Source: a virus
Taxonomy: Duplodnaviria; Heunggongvirae; Uroviricota; Caudoviricetes
Direction: 5' to 3' (one strand)
DNA length: 41,326 bases
Virus record (IMG/VR): IMGVR_UViG_2718218397_000001
Part shown: piece after piece, positions 2,853 to 8,814 of the stretch
Numbering within the stretch: position 1 is the stretch's first letter
Layout of the letters: each line of letters opens with the position of its first letter
Made by a program: the position numbers and the translations under genes
Notes under the pieces: model-generated
The model's input: the letters and a program-made list of their open reading frames with translations, nothing else
Database searches by the model: none
What the model was told of the DNA's origin: nothing

Positions 2853-3376
2853 GACTTCACCTCCTGTTTCGGCGCTGCTGGCATTTCACGCCAGTGCGTA
2901 ACTGAGTGCGGATCCGGATATTCGGTGCCATCATCCCAGCGATTGCCATTCCACATTGCAGACCACATCTCACCGTCTTCATACATGACCATTACCGGAA
3001 TTAACTTATCTGGCATTCGCTCACTACAGCTTATCCAACCATCCGGAGTTACCGGCACTGGCTGGGCGGTATAAAGCGGTGTTATATCTGCCCGAAAATT
3101 ACATGCTTTATGCATCCGCACCCACCGTTCGACTTCTGCTTTGTCAGGATACATGCCAGTGAACGTGTTATATTCACGGTCAATTTGCGTGAAGGTTACC
3201 TTCCACGCCACCGGCTCTGCTTCCAGAGATGCCAGTGCAATTCGTGCCAGTTCCATTTGTTCGCCACGAGTAAGTCCGTTATCAAGCGGATTTTTAATGA
3301 ATAATTTGATACGTTCTTTGGTTATAGCGCTCATATCACTCTCCTTTGATGCGAATGCCAGTAGCGCGGATTGCAT
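2849..3376 (-). CDS. DUF551-like phage protein
   Basis: 175-aa ORF with a Trp-rich C-terminus (MWSAMWNGNRWDDGTEYPD) that I read as DUF551-like. Confidence 0.5.
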   Translation of the reverse strand: MQSALLAFASKESDMSAITKERIKLFIKNPLDNGLTRGEQMELARIALASLEAEPVAWKVTFTQIDREYNTFTGMYPDKAEVERWVRMHKACNFRADITPLYTAQPVPVTPDGWISCSERMPDKLIPVMVMYEDGEMWSAMWNGNRWDDGTEYPDPHSVTHWREMPAAPKQEVKS

Positions 3377-3743
3377 CGATGACTTCAGAAACTTTGTATG
3401 CCATTACCGTTTGGTAATCATCGTGAAAATCTGTTCGATGAAGCATGCTGCTACGTTCCGGGAGCAGTATTTCCCGCGCTTTCAGTTCTGCAATGCGCTT
3501 TTTTGCTGCTTCCAGTTCATCCAGTAATTCCAGCACGGTAGCCGGATTAGCCTTGGCAACAAAATCCCGGACTTGCTTACAATCAATCTCCGCAATGGGT
3601 TGATACGATGTGTAGCCATGCTGTCTTGTATAACTACCGTGACGAATAACGAAAAAATCACCATTTATTTTTTTAGCCTGCCACTTATCTTCACCGGCTT
3701 TCTCTGCCGCTTCACGCAGTGCCTGATAGTTAATTTCGCTCAC
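3336..3743 (-). CDS. Ead/Ea22-like phage protein
   Basis: 135-aa ORF with coiled-coil C-terminus (ELLDELEAAKKRIAELKAR) typical of ead/Ea22 family. Confidence 0.45.
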   Translation of the reverse strand: MSEINYQALREAAEKAGEDKWQAKKINGDFFVIRHGSYTRQHGYTSYQPIAEIDCKQVRDFVAKANPATVLELLDELEAAKKRIAELKAREILLPERSSMLHRTDFHDDYQTVMAYKVSEVIDAIRATGIRIKGE

Positions 3744-4047
3744 TGGCTGCCTCCTTTGCTGGGCTTTCTAACTTCTGAGTGGTTGTATCAAACTCAAACA
3801 ACTTAACCACGTCATCAAACAGGACATAATCGCCATCAGAATCTTCAGTCATGTCAGCGCCACAATCCTGACCGAACGAGTCACAACCATCCATATCAAG
3901 CTCGTATCGCTTGAGTTTTGCGATATTTGATAAATTCAGCGCCAGTACAGCAAGGTCATAAACCTCATCAGCGGTATACCCGGCACCATGCCCATACATT
4001 TCAATACGGGATATGATTTCTTCTACACGTTGTTTTGTGATCGTCAT
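3730..4047 (-). CDS. Hypothetical acidic phage protein
   Basis: 105-aa ORF in the early-left string. Confidence 0.4.
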   Translation of the reverse strand: MTITKQRVEEIISRIEMYGHGAGYTADEVYDLAVLALNLSNIAKLKRYELDMDGCDSFGQDCGADMTEDSDGDYVLFDDVVKLFEFDTTTQKLESPAKEAASERN

Positions 4048-4049
4048 TT

Positions 4050-4568
4050 TTACTCACCTTCCTGTTCTTCCAGAAAAATACGCATAGCCTCAAGCATCTC
4101 TTCGGTGTCATACGGTGACAACTTGTCACGCAGGATGTGTTCAATGCTGTTAATGAACTTGCGGATTGCTTTGCGTTCAATTTCAGCAAGGAATGCGTCG
4201 GTGGCCGGGGTTTTGATTTCGTTAAGTGCATCACTGAATCCACCTCTCTCCATACCTAGCTCTGCTTCGTAATCGGCATCGAATGCAGCGTCTTTGCAGA
4301 ACTTCTTCAGCTTTGCATTCTCCGCTGCCAGCGCCGAAAACTTCTCGTGTGCCAACTTAACAGCCGAATCAGCCTGCTTAATTGATTCAATCGCTTTCTG
4401 TTGGTCTTCGGACAGAGCTGAAATCTTGGCCTCCGCTTCAGCAAATTTACGCACAAGATATTCAGCGTTTGTTTCGTTAACCTTTAAATCACATGGGATG
4501 CATTTACCTTTCAGAAATCCATCCATCTCAATTAGTGTCATTTGTTTCATTTTTTCCCACTCCGCCAC
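4050..4568 (-). CDS. Ead/Ea22-like coiled-coil phage protein
   Basis: 172-aa ORF, long Ala/Glu/Lys-rich helical region. Confidence 0.45.
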
Positions 4569-4711
4569 ATCGCATTCAGATATTTGTTTTGATTCACTGA
4601 TGGAAAAGAATTTCTCTTAAGTAATTCTTCTCTCGATGGCATTGGCTTTACGCGTTGGCGAATAATCATTTCTGCCGGAAGAATGCCGGGATTGTATGCA
4701 AGCCCTCTCAT
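4544..4711 (-). CDS. Hypothetical small basic protein (55 aa)
   Basis: Hand-read ORF with ggagag SD and ATGA overlap with the upstream stop; not in ORF track. Confidence 0.3.
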
Positions 4712-4998
4712 GATTTACTCTCCACGAACTGGTCAATAGCCATGCTAAGTGACACACCTAAAGTCTCGATATGTTGCTGAATATCCTGTAGCGTCTGCGC
4801 CTGAGATAACAGGATTTCACGGTTGCATAACTCTTTAACCAGATGCTCAAACTTGCTGTAATAACCGATACGGCTTAGTGTTTCTTTCCCTGCATTCTCG
4901 CCTTCTTTGATAATTCCTCTTTCGCTAAGAATCAGATCGTGTTTTGTTCCGGTAATAACGTATTTTCCGAGGTCGATGTTTAGCTTCATTGTTTTCAT
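4708..4998 (-). CDS. Hypothetical protein (about 96 aa)
   Basis: ORF 4708..5151; likely start at the internal Met ([14 protein letters not shown]) preceded by a gagga SD. Confidence 0.4.
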
Positions 4999-5008
4999 TG
5001 TTAATTCC

Positions 5009-5305
5009 TCAGTCATTACTGATAGCGCCATAGCGTGAGCGGTAATTACGCAGGCGCGGGTCGATATATTCAGGGAAGTGGGTATATGTGGCTTTGCGGA
5101 ATGGTCGGATTGATGTCTGGTAAATTCGCTCTCGTTCTTCTTTCTCTGCAAGCCATATACAGTGGCGAAATTCCTTTTCCTCTTTCGTTTCCTGCGGTAG
5201 CGACATTATCAGGTCGTAGTTTTTTCTGAATTTATCCAGCACCTCCGATACGGAATTGCCGGAACAGCGGCGCGGGTCATCCGCACCATACAGAGGCGCT
5301 GGCAT
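5009..5305 (-). CDS. Hypothetical protein (98 aa)
   Basis: ORF with aggaga SD directly downstream of the exonuclease gene. Confidence 0.45.
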   Translation of the reverse strand: MPAPLYGADDPRRCSGNSVSEVLDKFRKNYDLIMSLPQETKEEKEFRHCIWLAEKEERERIYQTSIRPFRKATYTHFPEYIDPRLRNYRSRYGAISND

Positions 5306-5321
5306 ATTTTTCTCCTGTTGA

Positions 5322-5870
5322 TTATTTAGCTAATTTTTTCCAGATCGCTGAAACGTATTTGGCTTGGTGGATGGCATCATCAAGCGCGTTGTGGCGAGTT
5401 CCTTTGAATGGCATATCTCGCTTAGGATCGAATCCTATTACCTTCCCAAGTTCGACGATTGTTCTTACGTCGCGGTCATTCCACCACTGCCACGGAACTG
5501 GCTGCCCTGTCAGCGAATAACTGTTGCGGAGAATAACGCAGTCAAATGATGCTCCATTCCCCCAAACCTGAACGAATTTGTGGTTAGCGTTCTTTATGAT
5601 GAATTCAGATAACCATGAAAGAGCCGTTGAAAGCTCCTGAGTGTTGCTGGTTAGCGATTTTCTGGCTTCTTCACTCTGTTCCATCCACCATAAAATCGTT
5701 GAAGCGTCAGGACGCGCTCGATATCGCATTGATGATTCAAGCGAGATATTTACCGAGAACTCTTCTCCTGTTTCTCCGGTATTCGGGTCAAAGAATACCG
5801 CCCCAATAGAAATAACAGGCGCGTATGGCCCGTTGCCCATTGTTTCAAGGTCAACCATTAAGTGATTCAT
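5322..5870 (-). CDS. DnaQ-like 3'-5' exonuclease (recombination module)
   Basis: 182-aa ORF starting MNHLMVDLETMGN (DEDD exonuclease motif I-like), next to SSB and annealase. Confidence 0.7.
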   Translation of the reverse strand: MNHLMVDLETMGNGPYAPVISIGAVFFDPNTGETGEEFSVNISLESSMRYRARPDASTILWWMEQSEEARKSLTSNTQELSTALSWLSEFIIKNANHKFVQVWGNGASFDCVILRNSYSLTGQPVPWQWWNDRDVRTIVELGKVIGFDPKRDMPFKGTRHNALDDAIHQAKYVSAIWKKLAK

Positions 5871-5878
5871 GTAAGTCC

Positions 5879-6394
5879 TTAAATTGCGTGAATAGCGTGA
5901 CGAGGGAAGGGGAGAGTTACTGGTGCAAAGGGTATATCGTCGTCAAAATCCATAGGTGGTTCGCTGTGATTCCCTTGCTGCTGAGGTTGCTGTCTTTGTT
6001 GCTGACCGTTATTTCGCTGAGGTGAAGACTGTTCATTGCCTCCTTGCTTGCCACCAATCATTTGCATAGTTCCACCAACGCCCACGATGACTTCAGTAGT
6101 GAACCGATCCTGTCCGCTTTGATCCTGCCATTTTCTTGTCCGCAATTTGCCTTCAAGATAAACCTCAGAGCCTTTTCGCAGATATTCGCTGGCAATTTCT
6201 GCCAGTTTCCCGCTCATTACCACGCGGTGCCACTCCGTCTGCTCCTTTTGCTCTCCAGTTTGCTTATCACGCCATTGTTCTGACGTAGCAACTGTAAGGT
6301 TTGCAAATGCCGTTCCTGATGGTGAATATCTGATTTCTGGATCATGCCCAAGGCGACCAATAATGATCACCTTATTTACGCCTCTGCTTGCCAT
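5879..6394 (-). CDS. ssb: Single-stranded DNA-binding protein with 15-aa extension after the DDDIPF tail
   Basis: Strong similarity to E. coli SSB along the OB fold and acidic tail; ORF continues past DIPF as [15 protein letters not shown]. Confidence 0.85.
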
Positions 6395-7102
6395 TTATGC
6401 CGCCTGTTTTAGCTCGTTAACTCTGATGTTCATTACCTGAACGCATTTAGCCTGCGCCTCCTCGTTTCCAGCCATTAATTGCCAGTCACGCTGATAACGC
6501 TCGATGAGTTTTTTCTTATCAGTTTCTTTCGATGCATAATCGCTGAAGTCTTTCAGGATTTGTTCGCAGTCAACCGATGGAGATTTCTGGTTGGTATTTT
6601 CTGGTGATGGTTTGTTATCTGATGCTGGGATTGCCCAGCCGGGCAGCGTTGGAGGGAGCCAGTAAAACCCTGTTCCATCCTTCAGTTTTGCCCTGTGCCA
6701 CCCCTGCTTTTTATCGAGAGATGTTTGTGCGAAACCTTCCTCAAGGTTATACAGATACCGACCGATTCCCCATTGAACGGCAGCGCGCTTCATTGCACCG
6801 GAACGACCACCTTTGACGGCTTCTACTTGCGTGTTTTCAGCAGCATCCCATTTGGTTACCCATTCGGAATCAATCTTGATTGATATGCCGCATTCAACTC
6901 CGCCGTTGTTGGGAATATCGCGGTATTCATTGCGCCATCCTGCTTTGCCGCAAACATCGTCCAGGCGTTTCATGATTGCCCTGTTCGTGACATAAGCCAG
7001 CACCATAGCCCACACTTTTCCATCGCGTGTTTTACCGCTTTGCTGTATTCGCCATTCGATATCTTCAGGGCTGAATGGCTCATCGAATTTATTCAAATCC
7101 AT
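6395..7102 (-). CDS. Rad52/Sak-like single-strand annealing protein
   Basis: 235-aa ORF with KGGRSGAMKRAAVQWGIGRYLY motif, positioned where lambda carries bet. Confidence 0.6.
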   Translation of the reverse strand: MDLNKFDEPFSPEDIEWRIQQSGKTRDGKVWAMVLAYVTNRAIMKRLDDVCGKAGWRNEYRDIPNNGGVECGISIKIDSEWVTKWDAAENTQVEAVKGGRSGAMKRAAVQWGIGRYLYNLEEGFAQTSLDKKQGWHRAKLKDGTGFYWLPPTLPGWAIPASDNKPSPENTNQKSPSVDCEQILKDFSDYASKETDKKKLIERYQRDWQLMAGNEEAQAKCVQVMNIRVNELKQAA

Positions 7103-7201
7103 AATTCACCTCAGAATGGACATGGCCCAAGGAAATAACGCTGGTTTAATACTTCGACTCTGGACAAATTAAGGCATACCCGCATTCCTTCGCGGTCACC
7201 A

Positions 7202-7360
7202 TTATGGCGATACCAGAGAGCTTTCTGCGTGTACATGCGTCTCTGTAACTTGCTCTCCTTCACTGTGGTTGCAAGTGGCATGAATATCTCCTTCGTTACC
7301 GATTAATTCTTTCATCTGACGAATGAATTCTTCGTCTGACCAGTTATCTGTAAAACTCAT
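7202..7360 (-). CDS. Hypothetical small acidic protein (52 aa)
   Basis: Hand-read ORF with ATGA overlap to the kil stop; occupies the lambda gam position. Confidence 0.35.
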   Translation of the reverse strand: MSFTDNWSDEEFIRQMKELIGNEGDIHATCNHSEGEQVTETHVHAESSLVSP

Positions 7361-7509
7361 TTCCTGCGATACCACGGAAGGTTGATAGCTGATTTCATCG
7401 CTTTATTTGCTTCAAGCCACATTTTTGAATCACCAATAAATCTGGCTATTACTGCTTTGTTCTGTGCAGCACGAAGCATCTGGTGATTAATGGCTATTTC
7501 ATTGCGCAT
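7357..7509 (-). CDS. kil: Kil-like protein
   Basis: 50-aa hand-read ORF; IARFIGDSKMW resembles lambda Kil IATFIGDEKMF; sits next to cIII. Confidence 0.55.
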   Translation of the reverse strand: MRNEIAINHQMLRAAQNKAVIARFIGDSKMWLEANKAMKSAINLPWYRRK

Positions 7510-7628
7510 AACGCCTCCAGTTGTTTCTTTGCTGCTCTGATTAATTGTTTAACTCGGCGTGATAATTCAGATTCGTGCGGGTAGAAAGCGGACATGACGC
7601 CGCTACCCGCGAGCTGAAAGTGCATCAT
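7494..7628 (-). CDS. cIII: cIII-like protease inhibitor
   Basis: 44-aa product MMHFQLAGSGVMSAFYPHESELSRRVKQLIRAAKKQL resembles lambda/P22 CIII; aaggag SD. Confidence 0.65.
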   Translation of the reverse strand: MMHFQLAGSGVMSAFYPHESELSRRVKQLIRAAKKQLEALCAMK

Positions 7629-7694
7629 GGGTAACTCCTTATATTTGATTGCATAACGAAAACGCCTCGAGTGAAGCGTTATTGGTATGCATAT

Positions 7695-7718
7695 AAAAAA
7701 GCCCTCACACTGGAGGGC
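7695..7718 (-). terminator. Intrinsic terminator (tL1-like) upstream of cIII
   Basis: gccctc-acactg-gagggc hairpin followed on the minus strand by a T-run. Confidence 0.55.
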
Positions 7719-7852
7719 AAAGAAGATTTCCAATAATCAGAACAAGTCGGCTCCTGTTTAGTTACGAGCGACATTGCTCCGTGTATTCACTCGTTGGAAT
7801 GAATACACAGTGCAGTGTTTATTCTGTTGTTTATGTCAAAAATAAAGGTCGA

Positions 7853-8311
7853 CTATGCGGCCTCGGAAGGAAGTCCAATCATCTTATTCAAATCTTCTAC
7901 CCGTAAAGCAGGAAGTGCTGTACTTGCTTTATCTGCTTCTTTTGGTAGCAATTCTTTGCTTTCAGGCCAAACCTCAATAAGTCGCTTAACTGTTGTGACT
8001 GAGTTCAAAGCAGCCCATACATTTGATTCGATATCCTTTTTCTTGGCTTCAAGTTTTTGTTGCAATGCGCAGATTTCATCAAACCTTTTTGTTATTTCGT
8101 GTTCTGCGCTAAACATGCATTTATCTTTGTTCGGAGTAGGGAGCAATATATCTTCGCCGTTGCCGTCTTTCCCATATGAAAGCCATCCAACCCTTCTGCC
8201 AGATACAGTCAGATAAATTGAAGTAGAACGAACATCGTATGAGTAAAATGAACATCCAATCTTTCCAAGTTCTTCACTTATAGCTACCAACTTGGATGAT
8301 AACTGATCCAC
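7853..8311 (-). CDS. Hypothetical accessory protein in the N-proximal slot; frame continues upstream through an in-frame TAA to an SD+ATG at 8476
   Basis: 152-aa ORF from GTG; the upstream 12 codons (MSSIRLTTRMKE) in the same frame end at TAA 8438..8440. Confidence 0.45.
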   Translation of the reverse strand: MDQLSSKLVAISEELGKIGCSFYSYDVRSTSIYLTVSGRRVGWLSYGKDGNGEDILLPTPNKDKCMFSAEHEITKRFDEICALQQKLEAKKKDIESNVWAALNSVTTVKRLIEVWPESKELLPKEADKASTALPALRVEDLNKMIGLPSEAA

Positions 8312-8487
8312 TTCCTCAGTTTTCTTTTTACCGCCAAACGCAATAACTCTGGCGTCAAGTGCAAGCTGGTTCTTTAACTTTGTTACTTCTTCAAGTTCAG
8401 TGAAAACCCCAGACTTAATTAAAGCGTTACGAGCGATTTACTCTTTCATTCTCGTAGTTAAGCGGATTGATGACATATTAATTCCTC

Positions 8488-8814
8488 TCAAATAAGTGGT
8501 TTGCTGCCTAATTTCATTTTCTGGCGACCAACACAAGTCACACCCATTTCACTGCGTGGCTTGCTGTACCATGTGCGCTGATTCTTGCGCTCAATACGTT
8601 GCAGGTTGCTTTCAATCTGTTCGTGGTATTCAGCCAGTACCGTAAGGTCTATCGGATTCAGTGCGCTTTCTACTCGTGATTTCGGTTTGCGATTCAGCGA
8701 GAGAATAGGGCGGTTAACCGGTTTTGCGCTTACCCCAACCAACAGGGGATTTGCTGCTTTCCATTGAGCCTGTTTCTCTGCGCGACGTTCGCGGCGGCGT
8801 GTTTGTGCATCCAT
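8488..8814 (-). CDS. N: Antiterminator N (lambda type)
   Basis: 108-aa product matches lambda N (MDAQTRRRERRAEKQAQWKAANPLL...) from recall. Confidence 0.9.
   Translation of the reverse strand: MDAQTRRRERRAEKQAQWKAANPLLVGVSAKPVNRPILSLNRKPKSRVESALNPIDLTVLAEYHEQIESNLQRIERKNQRTWYSKPRSEMGVTCVGRQKMKLGSKPLI

Follow-up and report, generated by a model that had tools for sequence, protein, structure and literature searches.

The recombination module of a lambdoid phage settles how the phage deals with the RecBCD enzyme of its host, by blocking it, hijacking it or depending on it, and such modules are in turn monitored by abortive-infection systems such as OLD, Gabija and some retrons. In a classification of 246 such modules, the combination of an anti-RecBCD protein (Abc2), a single-stranded DNA-binding protein (SSB), a nuclease and an annealase constitutes the 'ES18' functional type of class C (with anti-RecBCD), with 25 phages (Zheng, Casjens, Davidson, Amundsen and Smith 2025, PMC12315714). 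Genes 33–36 of phage epsilon34 were described as encoding Abc2, a possible nuclease 'unusual in this context', an SSB and a domain-swapped Erf (Villafane et al. 2008, PMC2629481), and the DnaQ-like 3'-5' nuclease of this phage is regarded as a legitimate yet puzzling member of its module (PMC12315714). Here we describe a locus of the same composition in IMG/VR virus record IMGVR_UViG_2718218397_000001, a stretch of 41,326 nucleotides (nt) that we refer to in its entirety as the window; it is the genome or prophage of a P22-like (CUS-3/Sf6-like) Escherichia coli podovirus. We focus on a 52-amino-acid (aa) acidic open reading frame (ORF) that lies between kil and the annealase gene.

Two proteins of related phages bear directly on this locus. 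As seen by cryo-electron microscopy, Abc2 of phage P22 binds RecC at its Chi-recognition domains and redirects RecBCD instead of blocking it; the Chi response is lost, and RecBCD is left making single-stranded DNA for the phage annealase (PMC9836394). The second is Gp33 of phage HK75. According to a preprint of July 2026 (bioRxiv 10.64898/2026.07.10.737580), the P2 abortive-infection nuclease OLD is activated by loss or inhibition of RecBCD and is triggered by lambda Gam and T7 gp5.9; of an HK75 locus encoding Gp33, Erf, Gp31 and Abc2, Gp33 alone suffices to trigger it, and the authors propose that Gp33 is a RecBCD inhibitor or manipulator. OLD toxicity on sole expression is reported there for HK75 Gp33 only.

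Results

A catalogued recombination module with its own abc2

Within the leftward early (pL) operon of what is a P22-like E. coli phage, the region is almost certainly the module for homologous recombination (Rec), and of the catalogued four-function type, as identified by matches to Pfam, PHROG and PDB together with DNA identity to annotated phages. On the minus strand, the order of transcription is cIII, kil, the acidic 52-aa ORF, a 56-aa HkaM-like ORF, annealase, SSB, DnaQ-type exonuclease and abc2 (Table 1). Its four functions are those of the epsilon34/ES18-type module, the gene order of epsilon34 is also the same, and we found no difference of substance: the window is another mosaic member. 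DNA from 5000 to 7800 is 92.5% identical to mEp235 across its full length and 97% identical over large parts to ECP1, IME10 and Sf6, which have the same annotated genes (92–97% over mEp235, mEpX2, ECP1 and Sf6); identity to epsilon34 is 86% over 76% of the query. The module is nearly identical to ones described before, and no gene in the window is new.

An initial annotation of positions 5322–7360 had read this region as an exonuclease, an SSB, a Rad52-like annealase and a small acidic ORF, with kil and cIII upstream as in lambda, and our Pfam scan and ORF listing place all of these on the minus strand at the same coordinates. What it missed was abc2, which starts 16 nt past the end of the exonuclease gene, just beyond the left edge of that region; with abc2 present, the element is not short of an anti-RecBCD function, contrary to what the initial annotation had implied.

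The window Abc2 is 93.9% identical to P22 Abc2 over its full length (tblastn, E 8e-60), scores 210 bits against PF11043 (cut-off 25) and matches PDB 8B1T, 'Anti-RecBCD protein 2', with E 1.8e-57. Residues 1–64 are identical to 8B1T, Ser stands for Ala at position 65 and Pro68 is kept; of the residues modelled on RecC/PpiB (3–66), all but residue 65 are therefore conserved. With 94% identity to the characterized P22 protein (PDB 8B1T/8B1U), the window Abc2 can be expected to bind RecC and to abolish the Chi response, and, to judge from this similarity, control of RecBCD is already accounted for by Abc2, the product of a gene other than the acidic ORF noted earlier. P22 Abc2 modifies RecBCD instead of blocking it, and in P22-like phages Abc2 is known to take the functional place of Gam.

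That no Gam is recognizable in the element, as noted initially, held up. In tblastn searches of all six frames of the whole window, the best E was 1.5 for lambda Gam (PF06064) and 3.1 for the Mu Gam-type protein of HK140 (MuGam); Pfam Gam had no match on the 16 pL-operon ORFs scanned (3336–8814), and P22 Abc1 was not found in the window by tblastn.

A short acidic gene of the Gp33 family

The acidic ORF (isoelectric point 4.4, net charge -9) is identical to HK75 Gp33 at 47 of 52 residues (90%, E 2e-35), and HK446 Gp33 is nearly as close. The HK75 and HK446 genes share with the window ORF their place right after kil, with an ATGA junction, a recombinase downstream, the overlap with an HkaM-like ORF and the presence of Abc2 in the module. 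The differences lie in the last ~7 residues, which read ESSLVSP in the window ORF and AGVNVSPEGRS in HK75 Gp33, and in the surrounding genes: HK75 has the annealase and SSB types of the window but lacks an exonuclease; in HK446 the annealase is Erf-type and the SSB gp40-type, where the window has a Rad52-type annealase.

The ATG of the acidic ORF overlaps the TGA stop of kil, an arrangement that would allow coupled translation; upstream, the only AGGA ends one base before the ATG, and there is no well-spaced Shine-Dalgarno sequence. Its 3' half shares 80 nt with a 56-aa ORF that is read in the +1 frame. The gam position, to which the initial annotation had assigned the 52-aa acidic ORF, thus does contain that ORF, together with a second, better conserved one, and both are widespread in lambdoid phages.

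To ask which frame is under selection, we collected 107 related loci and computed ratios of non-synonymous to synonymous differences (pN/pS) in all three frames for 63 unique sequences with the same geometry, as pooled Nei-Gojobori values whose pairs are non-independent and carry no tree correction. Over acidic codons 1–25, which lie outside the overlap, pN/pS was 0.44 in the acidic frame, 1.17 in the frame of the 56-aa ORF and 1.32 in the remaining frame. Within the 80-nt overlap the respective values were 1.60, 0.31 and 0.85, and over the rest of the 56-aa gene 1.19, 0.11 and 2.43. By this pattern, constraint on the acidic ORF is limited to its first ~26 residues, while the 56-aa gene is under strong constraint along its whole length.

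The constrained segment of the acidic ORF reads MS(F/I)xDxWS(D/E)xxF(I/V)R(Q/L)M(K/Q)(E/D)LIGxEG. The tail that follows drifts in sequence without amino-acid constraint yet is net-negative in every homologue examined, and the net charge is -5 to -9 in all homologues of the acidic ORF, including natural 35-aa forms that overlap no HkaM-like gene. The ORF is also kept in an Enterobacter phage and in related metagenomic viral contigs, with ~47% identity over residues 1–36. Given the frame-specific purifying selection on codons 1–25, this persistence in diverged phages and the kil-coupled start, the acidic ORF is very probably a real gene.

One 35-aa version, MSFTDNWSDEEFIRQMNKMLNQHKEQEKDDDSDSE, is unannotated in HK140 (L089), where it lies at 3524–3631 between a cIII-like gene and gp42. 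The HK140 module consists of RecT and MuGam, and the acidic N-terminal peptide thus also occurs beside a different anti-RecBCD protein.

AlphaFold2, run on the monomer, predicts a helix spanning residues 9–20 of the acidic protein, with low confidence elsewhere (mean predicted local distance difference test score (pLDDT) 61; block means of 73 and 82 over residues 1–20). Structure prediction of this protein had been suggested as a check in the initial annotation; for the monomer it returned a helix and a disordered tail, with no fold like that of Gam or gp5.9.

Gp33 homology points to a possible role in the RecBCD pathway

If Gp33 acted on RecBCD, this would explain why Gp33 alone sets off OLD, which monitors RecBCD. 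By analogy with HK75 Gp33, the acidic ORF is most likely a second, Abc2-independent inhibitor or manipulator of the host RecBCD pathway. An independent function also fits the occurrence of the acidic ORF in modules in which no Abc2 was detected in the flank examined. Taking the locus as a whole, the explanation that we favour, and consider somewhat better than an even bet, is a catalogued Rec module with a Gp33-family peptide acting on the RecBCD pathway; that the acidic ORF of the window itself acts on RecBCD we put at slightly under even.

T7 gp5.9 and lambda Gam are likewise small acidic phage proteins and triggers of OLD, and gp5.9 is also 52 aa long. Neither has sequence similarity to the acidic ORF, and gp5.9 forms a parallel coiled-coil dimer (modelled residues 1–49; PMC9836394), as against one predicted helix and a disordered tail.

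Several observations weigh against a RecBCD-directed peptide in this setting. The evidence that Gp33 acts on RecBCD is indirect, since it consists of OLD activation in one preprint that has not been peer-reviewed, and the gp33 clone of that preprint, if it is the annotated ORF, brings with it the HkaM-like gene's Shine-Dalgarno sequence and first 30 codons. Nor, given Abc2, is there an obvious need for another protein directed at RecBCD. The predicted 12-residue helix, of moderate confidence, is unlike the dimers of Gam or gp5.9, and a PDB profile search with the acidic ORF returned no inhibitor, the best match being colicin E8 immunity protein at a noise-level E of 0.36. The pN/pS values, as stated above, pool non-independent pairs without tree correction. 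Finally, a 3'-5' exonuclease is a puzzling component for an annealase module; nucleases of this kind, as Zheng et al. (2025, PMC12315714) point out, generally inhibit recombination.

The suggestion in the initial annotation that the acidic protein could be a nuclease inhibitor or DNA mimic is therefore one that we can follow in part. It agrees with the 90% identity to the OLD trigger Gp33 and with the DNA-mimic proposal for P22 Arf discussed below; on the other side, no folded mimic is predicted for the monomer and the C-terminal half of the protein is unconstrained. The idea of a nuclease inhibitor encoded by this small acidic ORF is not new but is already in the literature.

A more specific version, which we regard as doubtful when taken jointly, would make the Gp33-like ORF a RecBCD-binding inhibitor of a new minimal class, a short acidic helix with a disordered tail unrelated to Gam, gp5.9 and Abc2, with P22 Arf as a divergent member; separately, the Pro-Phe end of the HkaM-like protein would mimic the SSB tip, FxxxxPF-COOH, and engage host SSB partners.

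A better-conserved HkaM-like gene overlaps the acidic ORF

The 56-aa ORF, better conserved than the acidic ORF by the pN/pS values given above, has an AAGGAG Shine-Dalgarno sequence 6 nt before its ATG and aligns with HkaM of HK620 with an hhalign probability of 96.6% (E 5.4e-10). AlphaFold2 predicts a helical hairpin (helices 3–27 and 30–49, mean pLDDT 87). A PDB search gave RNase III as its best match with a noise-level E of 0.94, and Foldseek with the predicted hairpin returned generic helical hairpins only (E > 3). Its wider relatives amount to ~12 small clusters of like length among 1.8 billion representatives; it is a small family, seen only among phages of enteric bacteria.

All 13 aligned members of the family end in Pro-Phe, as does HkaM, and homologues down to 41% identity end in PF. 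The exact spacing of the SSB tip, FxxxxPF-COOH, occurs in 10 of the 13 and not in HkaM.

Like the 56-aa ORF, its homologue HkaM lies directly upstream of a recombinase. HK620 differs from the window in having no acidic ORF in front of HkaM and in its recombinase, which is Sak4 and not of the Rad52 type. The 56-aa gene likewise stands alone in an Erwinia phage and several metagenomic viral contigs, and the family precedes Erf-, Rad52- and Sak4-type recombinases alike. HkaM has been treated as an orphan, once called 'arf' by position, and brought no gain to oligonucleotide recombineering with Sak4 and SSB (PMC5928155).

Alternative readings of the acidic ORF

An unlikely alternative, though the one that survives best, is that the acidic ORF encodes an accessory recombination factor of the Arf type, acting not on RecBCD but on the phage annealase, for example through its Erf-type C-terminal domain. 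The positions correspond, P22 having c3-kil-arf-erf where the window has cIII-kil-ORF-annealase, and the window annealase does bear the C-terminal domain of P22 Erf. P22 Arf is also small and very acidic, near the window ORF in both size and acidity, and the two share an N-terminal motif, (F/W)SDEEFI; a weak match to the PHROG Arf family (PHROG 2445, E 0.059) and one database cluster labelled 'accessory recombination function protein' point the same way. However, Pfam Phage_Arf (PF17585), which recovers P22 Arf itself with 121 bits, has no match to the acidic ORF even at E <= 10, and hhalign gives a probability of 0.9% (E 0.061) over 18 columns. The acidic ORF is moreover found before Erf-, Rad52- and Sak4-type recombinases alike, which means that it is tied neither to a particular annealase nor to the C-terminal domain of Erf. 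Homology to P22 Arf lacks statistical support and we rejected it: a 7-residue motif is all that is shared, Pfam, hhalign and BLAST are non-significant, and the C-terminal two-thirds are unrelated. A role as a DNA mimic has been suggested for the small acidic Arf of P22 (Wilkinson et al., eLife 2022, PMC9836394), and with Arf itself proposed as a DNA mimic, this alternative may not differ from a Gp33-family peptide acting on RecBCD.

It is very unlikely that the acidic ORF is a chance open frame over the 5' end of the 56-aa gene and the kil junction, with only the HkaM-like protein being made. Such a reading would account for the excess of non-synonymous change in the acidic frame of the overlap, where the 56-aa frame is constrained, for the poor Shine-Dalgarno spacing and for the several annotated records that leave out one or other ORF. 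It does not account for the frame-specific constraint on codons 1–25, nor for the retention of the N-terminal peptide in diverged phages and in 35-aa forms without an HkaM-like overlap; the ATGA junction with kil allows coupled translation, and Gp33 alone, when expressed, gives a phenotype.

Less probable again is that the two small ORFs each encode half of a single ~82-aa protein, made by a +1 frameshift in the overlap or separated by an ancestral gene split. HK97 (L087, 3366–3617) has a single 83-aa ORF with an acidic N-terminus and the 56-aa part at its C-terminus, and several 82-aa fusions with varying junctions occur in a large protein database (P0007, P0014, P0039, P0046 and P0049). Those fusions, however, are one-member clusters of 1–4 contigs each, and their rarity and differing junctions fit sequencing errors or scattered indels, that is, natural frameshift variants. 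The usual start of the 56-aa gene enters another frame in HK97, so that HK97 resembles a frameshift mutant. The 56-aa gene also has its own strong Shine-Dalgarno sequence and stands alone in other phages, and programmed frameshifting between the two ORFs is not supported, although no search was aimed at a slippery sequence or a stimulator structure.

Hardly credible is the model implied by the initial annotation, in which the acidic ORF substitutes for Gam as the element's sole RecBCD defence: the window has no Gam or Mu Gam homologue and the ORF sits at the lambda gam position, but abc2 is intact and its product nearly identical to a characterized protein.

Annealase, SSB and exonuclease

The PF04098 domain of the annealase covers residues 4–136 (91.9 bits, cut-off 20.3), and its C-terminal ~79 aa (window 6395–6634) are 62% identical to residues 134–205 of P22 Erf; by these matches the protein is a chimera of a Rad52-type N-terminal domain and a P22-Erf-type C-terminal domain. 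The same Erf domain swap has already been described in epsilon34 (PMC2629481).

The SSB is of the bacterial type, with an OB domain (PF00436) and a DDDIPF motif that does not end the protein, since 15 residues still follow it; the alignment to TIGR00621 covers residues 4–156 only, and the extension is encoded at 5879–5926, the 3' end of the SSB gene. In E. coli SSB, the tip has to be C-terminal for partner proteins to bind. The extended tail is common to 31 related loci. We considered a link between the extension and the DnaQ exonuclease and rejected this, since the gene that follows is the exonuclease in 14 of these loci and in the other 17 is abc2. In 17 loci with SSBs ending at IPF, the next gene is neither the DnaQ exonuclease nor abc2; in the examples listed, such SSBs are followed by a 159-aa ORF, presumably the HNH endonuclease of the Sf6 annotation.

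The exonuclease belongs to the Rv2179c-like family (PF16473, 245.8 bits) and has all five DEDDh residues (D7, E9, D110, H160 and D165). Its nearest solved structure is 8KEL, 'Exodeoxyribonuclease' (227 aa, E 6.8e-14), a protein equal in length to T4 DexA.

Organization of the pL operon

We assigned the genes of the operon from the ORF listing and from Pfam and PHROG family scans (Table 1), choosing the cIII start by comparison with the mEp235 annotation. From cIII to abc2, the gaps between genes are 0–16 nt and Shine-Dalgarno sequences precede most genes, which marks the operon as one compact, tightly packed unit of expression and fits partial translational coupling of its genes.

Table 1 Genes of the leftward early operon in the window
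Feature	Coordinates	Strand	Evidence and remarks
N	8488–8814	-	PF11438
Nmad5-domain ORF	7853–8311	-	PF18757, E 1e-51
cIII, 44 aa	7494–7628	-	PF08134, E 7.8e-30; AAGGAG Shine-Dalgarno upstream
kil, 50 aa	7357–7509	-	PF06301 Lambda_Kil, E 1.7e-20
52-aa acidic ORF, HK75/HK446 Gp33 family	7202–7360	-	90% identity to HK75 Gp33; phrog_2123, E 4e-41
56-aa basic ORF, HK620 HkaM family	7111–7281	-	phrog_1723, E 4.5e-35; hhalign against HkaM
Rad52-type annealase	6395–7102	-	PF04098, E 4.9e-26; phrog_1097, E 1e-129
SSB	5879–6394	-	PF00436, E 2.6e-38
DnaQ-fold (DEDDh) exonuclease	5322–5870	-	PF16473, E 2.8e-73; phrog_255 'exonuclease', E 2e-86
abc2	5009–5305	-	PF11043, E 4.4e-63
DUF5405 gene	4708–4998	-	PF17399
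DUF2737 gene	4547–4711	-	PF10930
Ead/Ea22-type genes	3336–4568	-	PF13935 on 3336–3743; PHROG families common to 3336–3743 and 4050–4568

Directly after the DUF2737 gene, a 172-aa ORF (4050–4568, minus strand) is 42% identical to HK446 gp27, or Oad2 (E 1e-40). On the strength of this identity we rejected a reading of the ORF as Mu-Gam-like, of which the one Pfam trace is a Mu_Gam (PF07352) score of 12.7 bits against a cut-off of 28.3. Oad2 of HK446 is an OLD inhibitor related to P22 EaE and to EaD/Ea22 fusions, and the homologue in HK75 (54% identity) is reported to be non-protective (bioRxiv 10.64898/2026.07.10.737580). The window carries the OLD-trigger homologue and the Oad2 homologue together.

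The ORF between N and cIII has a match to nucleotide modification associated domain 5 (Nmad5) and belongs to a PHROG family without an assigned function. The Chi site (GCTGGTGG) occurs 0 times on either strand of the 41.3 kilobases, against 0.9 expected; its absence agrees in direction with what has been reported of lambdoid phages that have an anti-RecBCD gene but on its own is neither significant nor informative.

Discussion

We propose that in this module Abc2 would, by homology, reprogramme RecBCD, and that Abc2-modified RecBCD, and not the predicted 3'-5' exonuclease, would resect the ends. The annealase, probably helped by its cognate SSB, would anneal the resulting single-stranded DNA, an activity that headful packaging obliges the phage to have if it is to circularize, and the DEDDh exonuclease may trim 3' ends or flaps. 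Independently of Abc2, the Gp33-like peptide may perturb the RecBCD pathway, as the HK75 experiment suggests; its working part would be an N-terminal acidic amphipathic helix (~residues 1–26, net charge -5), followed by the disordered tail.

What remains of interest at this locus is the mechanism of the Gp33/Arf-slot peptides and the overlapping HkaM-like gene. Since arf was described in 1991, no mechanism has become known for the small acidic genes in its slot, and our analysis narrows the functional unit of the acidic ORF to about 26 residues. The annotated gp33 ORF contains part of a second, better-conserved gene, and experiments with gp33 need to control for the overlap. If the Gp33 family does inhibit RecBCD directly, it would provide a very small, portable inhibitor of use in recombineering, and would explain how RecBCD-guarding defences come to be set off by phages that already carry Abc2.

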